Below are positions 5,513-5,947 of a DNA stretch of 9,273 nucleotides, piece by piece. A model generated the notes under the pieces. The model did not search any database and was not told the DNA's origin. It saw only the letters and a list, made by a program, of their open reading frames with translations. The position numbers and the translations under genes were made by a program. The stretch is taken from the IMG/VR virus record IMGVR_UViG_2690316318_000024; one strand, written 5' to 3'. The DNA comes from a virus. Lineage: Duplodnaviria > Heunggongvirae > Uroviricota > Caudoviricetes. How positions within the stretch are numbered: position 1 is the stretch's first letter; every line of letters starts with the position of its first letter.

Positions 5513-5765
5513 TTCTTTTCCTTTTGCGTTGTTGGGGAATAACCAGGTCCACCTCGCCTGATGTGGCTAAAAGCAGGCACATAACAGCTAAGTATTTTCA
5601 ACCAGAGAGAATCCTTAGCGTTGTGGTGAATGCGGCTCAGCGCACGCGGGTAAAGGTTGAGGCTGACAGTCGACCTTCTGTGGATACCCACCCGCCTGGT
5701 GTGCAACCTTCGCTAGGCACCGGGAGGCGCCCGGCACCACAACTTTATGCTGTGTGTAGTCTTGG

Positions 5766-5810
5766 CGGTACCAGCTTGTACCCTTGCTTCCGGCTGGTAC
5801 CGTCCTTTTT
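5766..5810 (+). terminator. Intrinsic terminator-like hairpin (10-bp perfect stem CGGTACCAGC/GCTGGTACCG, 17-nt loop) followed by TCCTTTTT
   Basis: Stem 5766-5775 pairs with 5793-5802; T-run 5806-5810. Lies in the GC-rich noncoding island between the accessory genes and the yfdP-like gene. The long loop lowers confidence. Confidence 0.4.
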
Positions 5811-5947
5811 ACAAAACAGAGAAGAGCATCACCGGACGACGGGCTCATAACCCAATCCATCCGGGCGGCTGCCACCGCAGGTGTTCTTCTCTGTTTTGTG
5901 GAGAAACCAACCGGCCTTGCAGGGTCGATATGATGAGGAGCAGCAAA

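Follow-up and report, generated by a model that had tools for sequence, protein, structure and literature searches.

We analysed a 9,273-nt stretch of phage DNA (IMG/VR virus record IMGVR_UViG_2690316318_000024; hereafter the window), whose genes were assigned using Pfam and NCBIfam and which comprises the immunity and early-left region of an e14/SfV/ST64B-like lambdoid prophage. Within it we focused on the interval 5513-5947, between a minus-strand accessory gene of the ECs1072 family and yfdP, whose open reading frame (ORF) matches phrog_204 (Table 1). The original prediction, made from the sequence alone, had described this interval as a GC-rich noncoding island with several hairpins, and had proposed a structured leader, a cis-acting antitermination RNA, a small RNA gene or the remnant of a degraded gene. 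Our analysis revealed a conserved RNA module whose core, judged by sequence and covariance models, is a genuine but divergent member of the STnc100/PasD family, a group of small RNAs that are associated with Hfq and carried on prophages. A homologous stretch of E. coli E4 is 98.8% identical and adjoins icd, with xisE and intE annotated.

Table 1. Features of the window at and around the RNA module (coordinates are positions in the window)
Feature	Position	Strand	Details or basis
O-like gene		-	Pfam/NCBIfam
CII-like gene	2110-2772	-	Pfam/NCBIfam
cro-like gene	2690-2938	-	Pfam/NCBIfam
CI-type repressor gene	3074-3760	+	HTH and S24 peptidase domains; Pfam/NCBIfam
BRCT-domain protein, accessory gene	3743-4663	-	Pfam/NCBIfam
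Probable early-left promoter PL	4697-4725	+	TTGACA-17-TAAATT; promoter scan, 10/12 matches
PL-leader motif, 62 nt	4749-4810	+	Immediately after PL, same transcript as module
PL-leader motif, outer helix	4749-4753/4806-4810	+
PL-leader motif, invariant 19-nt strand	4758-4776	+	CAGGACGCCCACGAAGUAG
PL-leader motif, hairpin	4780-4784/4797-4801	+
Small ORF	4900-5106	+
ECs1072-family protein, accessory gene	5078-5512	-	Pfam/NCBIfam
Module, conserved left part	5549-5619	+
Module, STnc100/PasD-family structured core	5620-5743	+	RF02076, R1, covariation
Core, closing helix P0	5620-5628 with 5735-5743	+
Core, junction	5629-5631	+	AAU
Core, hairpin P1	5632-5636/5642-5647	+	Loop UCAGC; bulged A5644
Core, helix P2	5648-5651 with 5690-5693	+	GGGU with ACCC
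Core, pseudoknot	5653-5659 with 5704-5710	+	AAGGUUG with CAACCUU (in P3 loop)
Core, helix P3	5694-5699 with 5713-5718	+
Core, hairpin P4	5720-5734	+	Nearly invariant
Module, single-stranded linker	5744-5763	+	20 nt
Module, intrinsic terminator T1	5764-5811	+	12-bp stem 5764-5775/5793-5804, 17-nt loop, CUUUUUA
Module, long hairpin H2	5806-5904	+	~90 nt; apex three-way junction
Module, small hairpin H3	5912-5927	+	CGGCCU-UGCA-GGGUCG; right end of module
Shine-Dalgarno sequence and yfdP start codon	5935-5940 and 5948	+	GAGGAG; same annotation on identical RefSeq homolog
yfdP	5948-6310	+	Pfam/NCBIfam
DUF2303 protein, HD hydrolase, integrase genes	After yfdP	+	Pfam/NCBIfam

The GC content is 0.51-0.59 across 5501-5900 and 0.35-0.42 across 5001-5500, bearing out the description of an island richer in GC than its left flank. 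Given the ORFs that overlap the interval, we considered whether it encodes a small protein, either YmfH-like on the plus strand or phrog_3651-like on the minus strand. In favour of such a protein, the ORFs at 5615-5875 (-) and 5784-5933 (+) match PHROG profiles of unknown function (E-values, E, of 5e-49 and 5e-18), and in K-12 a gene, ymfH (b1142), is annotated over the e14 copy of the module. However, none of the overlapping ORFs (these two, 5524-5850 on the plus strand and 5431-5706 on the minus strand) matches an NCBIfam family, the ORFs are split in the window, and two RefSeq homologs name the matching plus-strand ORF "hypothetical protein, frameshifted". The phrog_3651 match spans only profile positions 88-160 of 162, and the remainder would run antisense through yfdP. 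In comparisons with e14 and ST64B, the substitutions show neither codon periodicity nor third-position bias, single-nucleotide insertions and deletions lie within the conserved core, and the pattern of variation is that of a base-paired RNA. A protein-coding gene (YmfH, phrog_3651 or phrog_33599) was rejected on these grounds as almost certainly absent, the same observations contradict the proposed remnant of a degraded protein gene, and the ymfH ORF is probably an annotation artefact. A scan for tRNA and tmRNA genes found nothing. The fold of 5590-5815 has a z-score of -2.7 and the minimum-free-energy fold of 5744-5947 one of -5.8, with 0 of 200 shuffles folding as well in either case. We conclude that the interval 5513-5947 is non-coding and strongly structured.

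A covariance-model search against Rfam, which had been suggested along with the original prediction, gave a full-length match (model positions 1-206) to STnc100 (RF02076) at 5590-5813, with 43.2 bits and an E of 7.2e-7; it was the only Rfam match in the region at E <= 1. This score is below the gathering threshold of 47 bits, as are those of the E4 homolog (43.1 bits) and of the copy in Cronobacter phage phiES15 (40.6 bits), and threshold-based Rfam annotation would therefore miss the module. We also scanned IMG/VR for the most conserved block of the family, CCGGGAGGCNCCCGGCACCA, which yielded 120 loci with 83 unique cores, and used a covariance model, R1, made from 47 aligned canonical cores with the subtype of the window excluded. 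R1 found the window core in full length (1-126 of 126) at 53.7 bits (E 7.8e-14), and scored the copies in ST64B, phage P1 and phiES15 at 62.4, 56.7 and 65.0 bits, respectively; a degenerate copy in mEp460 received 18.8 bits. The conserved blocks of the family, namely UGGUGAAU, the hairpin P1 loop UCAGC (pattern UNNGC) and CACCGGGAGGCGCCCGGCACCA, are all present in the window. Of the options originally listed, a small RNA gene thus gained support from family membership. Previous studies reported that PasD1 and PasD2 of enteropathogenic E. coli are Hfq-dependent, based on Northern blots and RIL-seq (PMC8550237), and that 11 STnc100 copies are expressed in EDL933, with Northern-blot confirmation for one (PMC5331693). 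EcOnc27/sRNA103 of E. coli O157:H7, located downstream of stx2B, overlaps an STnc100 copy (PMC12711010), and a preprint from the Storz laboratory judged PasD and STnc100 to be structurally related and of shared ancestry (bioRxiv 10.64898/2026.05.13.724894).

By comparative analysis, the core is a four-helix domain with a long closing helix, a pseudoknot lock and sequence-invariant loops; a variable segment lies between the 5′ strand of P2 and P3. Across the family (97 distinct sequences), 93.7% of the alignment cells are paired, compared with 42-49% in slid controls, 17 pairs are changed on both sides, and 0 of 500 shuffles reach the observed values. The alignment of the subfamily gave 92.2% paired cells and 12 compensated pairs, so the comparative alignment proposed with the original prediction revealed many compensatory changes at both levels, including changes between the E. 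coli, Salmonella, Cronobacter and phage P1 copies. Helices P0, P1 and P3 are strongly backed by this covariation. In the subtype, all five pairs of hairpin P1 are exchanged (GCGGC/GC-A-CGC in the window versus the canonical CCCCC/GG-N-GGG), with the loop and the bulge retained. The previously noted CCGGG/CCCGG hairpin at 5720-5734 corresponds to P4 of the family, which is nearly invariant, also in copies found only by the model; since the pattern used to collect the loci is itself part of P4, the covariation of this hairpin does not allow a fair judgement.

The stretch just after hairpin P1 pairs with the P3 loop, and because the two strands cross P3, this interaction is a true pseudoknot; it is missing from the consensus-structure line of RF02076. 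Since many copies share related strands, a first cross-partner control was too lenient, and the control was made on 21 non-redundant sequence classes, in which duplexes with the own partner averaged -10.6 kcal/mol and those with cross-partners -5.3 kcal/mol (Mann-Whitney p = 1.8e-9). Within the subfamily, the pseudoknot is 90% paired and 5 of its 7 pairs are changed on both sides. The strands of relatives read AAGGCUG/CAGCCUU in phiES15, UGGUUAU/AUAACCA in phage P1 and CAGUUA/UAACUG in record L091, a phage region of another immunity type, and AGACUGACAAA/UUUGUCAGUCU also occurs. The local hairpin at 5653-5677 that had been described earlier can indeed form in the window sequence, but it is comparatively unsupported across relatives: 69.9% of the cells are paired, no better than in shuffles (342/500), with one compensated pair. 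It was rejected as a conserved element, its 5′ strand pairing instead with the P3 loop. The long closing helix, the pseudoknot and the hairpins at 5806-5904 and 5912-5927 had been overlooked in the original prediction.

The conserved block extends from ~5549 to ~5927 among E. coli copies, with different genes on both sides, and its retention as RNA structure between variable neighbours supports the structured-leader option. In its left part, the 33-mer at 5549-5581 (CCACCUCGCCUGAUGUGGCUAAAAGCAGGCACA) recurs identically in phiES15. Downstream of the core, copies from E. coli, Salmonella and Cronobacter have the linker segment 5748-5763 (UGCUGUGUGUAGUCUU) in conserved form, with no substitution relative to e14 and two relative to ST64B although the adjacent terminator is replaced wholesale; the segment is a candidate seed or chaperone-binding site, and no site complementary to it was found within the window. 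The hairpin with a T-run noted earlier at 5766-5810 proved to be an intrinsic terminator, T1, which begins 21 nt after the core and combines a fold of -23 kcal/mol with a U5 tract at 5806-5810. ST64B, phiES15 and L091 each have a hairpin and U-run at the same place, with unrelated stem sequences, and a terminator-like hairpin with a U-run follows 91 of the 108 distinct family copies at a median of 25 nt after the core.

Two further hairpins are conserved beyond T1. The lower stem of H2 comprises 25 pairs (5806-5830 with 5880-5904; inverted repeat 5811-5835/5875-5899) and absorbs the U-tract of T1; 99% of its cells are paired, and one G-C pair is compensated to A-U in ST64B. The conserved sequence GGAGAAACCAAC (5900-5911) directly precedes H3, which occurs in covarying versions (CGACC/GGUCG, GGCGG/CCGCC, CCCC/GGGG and GGGCGG/CCGCCC) and beyond which the genes of the copies differ. 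In L091, the same order of elements is found with wholly different T1 and H2 sequences, and the hairpin at the H2 position ends in the same GUGGAGA(A/U)ACCA. That H2 and H3 are conserved points to a further function in cis and suggests that read-through transcripts also matter.

The position of the module differs from that of its canonical relatives. No sigma-70-like promoter was found beside it on either strand (5490-5640), even under lenient criteria, and a sigma-54-like GGCAC..GC at 5577-5589 was rejected for wrong spacing. Under strict criteria, an own sigma-70 promoter was detected in 31 of 86 distinct upstream regions of canonical copies and in none of the 11 of the subtype. The canonical promoters place the start at the closing helix, and canonical copies look like stand-alone genes. 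As a separate observation, canonical STnc100-type genes also occur in tandem arrays of 3-5 copies with ~250 nt spacing (records L021, 366-996; L029, 1719-3286; L067, 4373-5467; L012, 2318-3357), the copies of an array differing from each other in the variable region and the linker. In the window, e14, ST64B, phiES15 and L091, the subtype follows cI and a PL-like promoter in the same orientation, an arrangement seen in four lambdoid lineages of immunity. In the window, the PL candidate sits between the BRCT gene and the small plus-strand ORF and is overlapped by operator-like repeats, ACATAAAGTTGT and CACAACTT..AGGTGT, which are present both there (4686-4740) and in the cro/cI intergenic region (3005-3044); equivalent promoters were found after the cI genes of e14, ST64B and L091. 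This promoter is therefore the probable PL and the likely source of transcription through the RNA module, which places the interval 5513-5947 inside the early-left operon, ~880 nt downstream of PL.

The same transcript would begin with a second structured element, the PL-leader motif (Table 1), which we identified in 51 phage records from Escherichia, Shigella, Salmonella, Citrobacter, Klebsiella, Yersinia, Pectobacterium and Aeromonas. In the six records inspected for their annotation, the motif invariably follows the repressor gene on the same strand, at a distance of 100-170 nt. Its pairing was analysed in 11 diverse copies: 93.6% of the cells are paired (slid controls, 20-46%), with compensation at 10 of 11 pairs; the motif has no Rfam match. 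Its location, where PL transcription starts, makes it a candidate for a cis-acting early-leader RNA that may let PL transcription pass T1. A different PL-proximal leader is found in mEp460 (L125, 2060-2500) and in L091 (1990-1400, minus strand); the hairpin with which it begins (CGGCGUAUGG..CAUGCGUCG) resembles stem I of HK022 putL, having the 3′ strand AUGCGUCG and a large part of the 5′ strand in common with it, and this leader may be a put-type antiterminator.

The module is widespread. It is present at a coverage of at least 80% in 1824 of 5426 complete E. coli genomes, and it is retained at 95-99% identity in ~1800 E. coli genomes and in the plaque-forming phages SfV, SfII, SfIV and ST64B. 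A copy of the same subtype lies in phage P1 (70080-70199; L003, 3004-3123), unannotated in the P1 record; within the ban operon it is flanked by upl and tciA, directly precedes the latter, and is accompanied by three tRNA genes and a dicF-like region. The K-12 e14 copy (L128, 5570-5881, equivalent to window ~5623-5934) is 89% identical; its core scores 42.6 bits, and its P4 is damaged (CCGGG-GGCA-CCCGA). The original yfdP locus of K-12, CPS-53, lacks the module and has only the last ~25 nt before yfdP in common with the window, so data on CPS-53 are uninformative about the module. We found no published study of this subtype.

Compared with STnc100, including EcOnc27/sRNA103, the window module shares the closing helix UGGUG/CACCA, the AAU junction, hairpin P1 with its UNNGC loop, P3, and P4 (CCGGG-AGGCA-CCCGG, with the loop AGGCG in the window), as well as a linker and intrinsic terminator after the core, a total length of ~190-200 nt and a prophage location. 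Unlike STnc100, it scores under the gathering threshold, has an exchanged hairpin P1 stem and an extra GGGU/ACCC helix, lacks a promoter of its own, is followed by two further conserved hairpins, and resides in a repressor-controlled early-left operon, whereas canonical copies stand alone near stx or lysis genes. PasD1 and PasD2, compared by description, likewise have a 3′ stem-loop with poly-U and depend on Hfq for stability (PMC8550237), but they adjoin the Q antiterminator and lysis genes and are expressed in uninduced lysogens. The C4 and IsrK antisense RNAs of P1/P7 and prophages are also structured prophage RNAs embedded in operons; they belong to different Rfam families without a window match at E <= 1, and ST64B carries both elsewhere.

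Based on the homology to Hfq-associated relatives and on the anatomy of the module, we propose that a PL transcript ends at T1 as a small RNA of ~190 nt and that T1 also attenuates yfdP-xis-int, which we regard as the probable, though far from certain, explanation. When the CI-type repressor is lost, transcription from PL would run through the module, the core would fold, and most polymerases would halt at T1, giving a stable RNA from 5620 to ~5811 whose 5′ end would be set by processing or buried in the closing helix. The linker segment 5748-5763 and the U-tail of the terminator would be the likely Hfq- and target-pairing part, as in PasD and STnc100/EcOnc27, and the RNA may act in trans. T1 would thereby also attenuate yfdP-yfdQ-HD-xis-int, and in read-through transcripts the yfdP ribosome-binding site would be preceded by H2 and H3, the former being a plausible RNase III/processing or stability element. 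As the module is wired into a repressor-controlled operon, the RNA of this subtype would appear only on induction or infection.

Several observations weigh against this proposal. Transcription from PL is assumed to reach the module, because the convergent ECs1072 gene intervenes between the two and no adjacent promoter was found, and the transcript of this subtype is inferred from expression evidence on canonical relatives. The phage P1 copy has no terminator, the P4 loop of the window is AGGCG where almost all copies have AGGCA, and the conserved H2 and H3 would not be needed in a simple small-RNA gene. The lack of an own promoter and the rare P4 loop would also suit a small-RNA gene that is decaying and has become a functionless passenger between mobile gene cassettes, as would the e14 copy with its damaged P4 and the degenerate mEp460 copy. 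We nevertheless consider a passive relic improbable, because structure-preserving double substitutions separate the E. coli, Salmonella, Cronobacter, P1 and L091 copies and the module is widely retained in both bacterial genomes and plaque-forming phages; the linker, moreover, is conserved beside fully replaced terminator stems.

A more serious alternative, though still an unlikely one, is a cis-acting regulatory leader, in which binding of a small ligand, or of a factor from host or phage, to the core would set the efficiency of T1, thereby timing the delayed-early left genes from yfdP to xis/int, with the small RNA as a by-product. The layout of an aptamer-like domain, a terminator and genes is attenuator-like, the loops and P4 are nearly invariant across ~100 distinct copies, suggesting a conserved recognition partner, and in four immunity lineages the early-left operon has the subtype at its head. 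The 5′ pseudoknot strand, moreover, can alternatively form the local hairpin in the window sequence, and it is the conservation of H2 and H3 after T1, with its hint that read-through transcripts matter, that leads us to retain this alternative. On the other hand, inspection of four lineages with unrelated T1 sequences revealed no conserved alternative pairing between sensor and terminator of the kind expected for a transcription-attenuating riboswitch: T1 differs completely between lineages while the 3′ strand of the core stays constant, and the sole alternative pairing found, 5653-5677, is not conserved. Most family members, in addition, stand alone with their own promoter and terminator and have nothing downstream to regulate.

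The antitermination option of the original prediction fared worse. A processive antiterminator RNA resembling HK022 put, whose core would bind polymerase so that T1 and later terminators are ignored, would suit an N-less phage: the stretch from PL to yfdP encodes no N-like protein, Q is the sole antiterminator described in the SfIV genome paper (PMC3851460), and the module, like putL, is a structured RNA in the early-left leader of an N-less lambdoid phage, its position there corresponding to that of putL (PMC9378689). Yet R1 gave no match at E <= 1 in the HK022 immunity region with putL and putR, and short common strings (CGGGAG.GC..GGC; CAGGAUGA), tried as a sign of relationship and rejected, yielded no model match either. 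The put elements are ~70 nt long, consist of two tandem stem-loops (PMC9378689) and follow both PL and PR, whereas the window core is a closed, pseudoknotted four-helix domain of 124 nt, present in a single copy with none in the rightward operon, and lies ~880 nt from PL. Given this different topology, the lack of an R1 match and the terminator-like signal directly downstream of most family copies, which are discrete small RNAs in the literature, such a role is highly improbable, and the PL-leader motif at the start of the PL transcript is a better-placed candidate. A broader proposal, which we regard as distinctly unlikely, is that N-less phages of the e14/SfV/ST64B/ZF40 kind use an RNA-only early-left circuit, in which the element at 4749-4810 would modify elongation and the STnc100-type domain would be a factor-sensing attenuator at T1 and more than a base-pairing small RNA. 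If true, the conserved core throughout the STnc100/PasD family would serve to bind a partner that is itself conserved, from either host or phage.

Returning to the proposed PL-driven small RNA, the module adds a new, positionally distinct variant to a family of prophage small RNAs that was already known, and its fold is better defined than the one on record. An interval that was unannotated or misannotated, as a frameshifted hypothetical protein in RefSeq and as ymfH in K-12, and that roughly one in three complete E. coli genomes contains, is now assigned to a known RNA family, which is itself broader than the Rfam model captures. The pseudoknotted core with invariant loops is more elaborate than a typical Hfq-dependent small RNA, suggesting a specific binding partner, and with this arrangement the coupling of a phage small RNA to xis/int attenuation becomes concrete and open to testing. 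The PL-leader motif, in turn, bears on how N-less lambdoid phages pass early terminators.

Other repeats and hairpins were observed in the window. Between PL and the accessory genes there are minus-strand terminator-like hairpins at 4822-4841 and 4753-4769. The former (AAGCGTCCTGTAGGGCGCTT followed by a T-run) probably stops ECs1072 transcription from entering PL, and the latter, which overlaps the PL-leader motif, may be a chance reading of the complement of that motif. The minus-strand ECs1072 gene has, immediately upstream of its start, a 19-20-nt unit, GTTGTTGGGGA(A)TAACCAG, which occurs once in the window (5528-5547) and twice in most close relatives (L001, 6129-6181), where an additional segment of 33 bp is present; the unit may be a repeat that regulates this gene. 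Finally, a long imperfect hairpin of repeated TCTGAC/GTCAGA units lies at 1390-1464 (-), inside the O-like replication gene. A match of this hairpin to a plant microRNA model was dismissed as chance (30.7 bits against a threshold of 97), and the hairpin may be an iteron or origin-type repeat.

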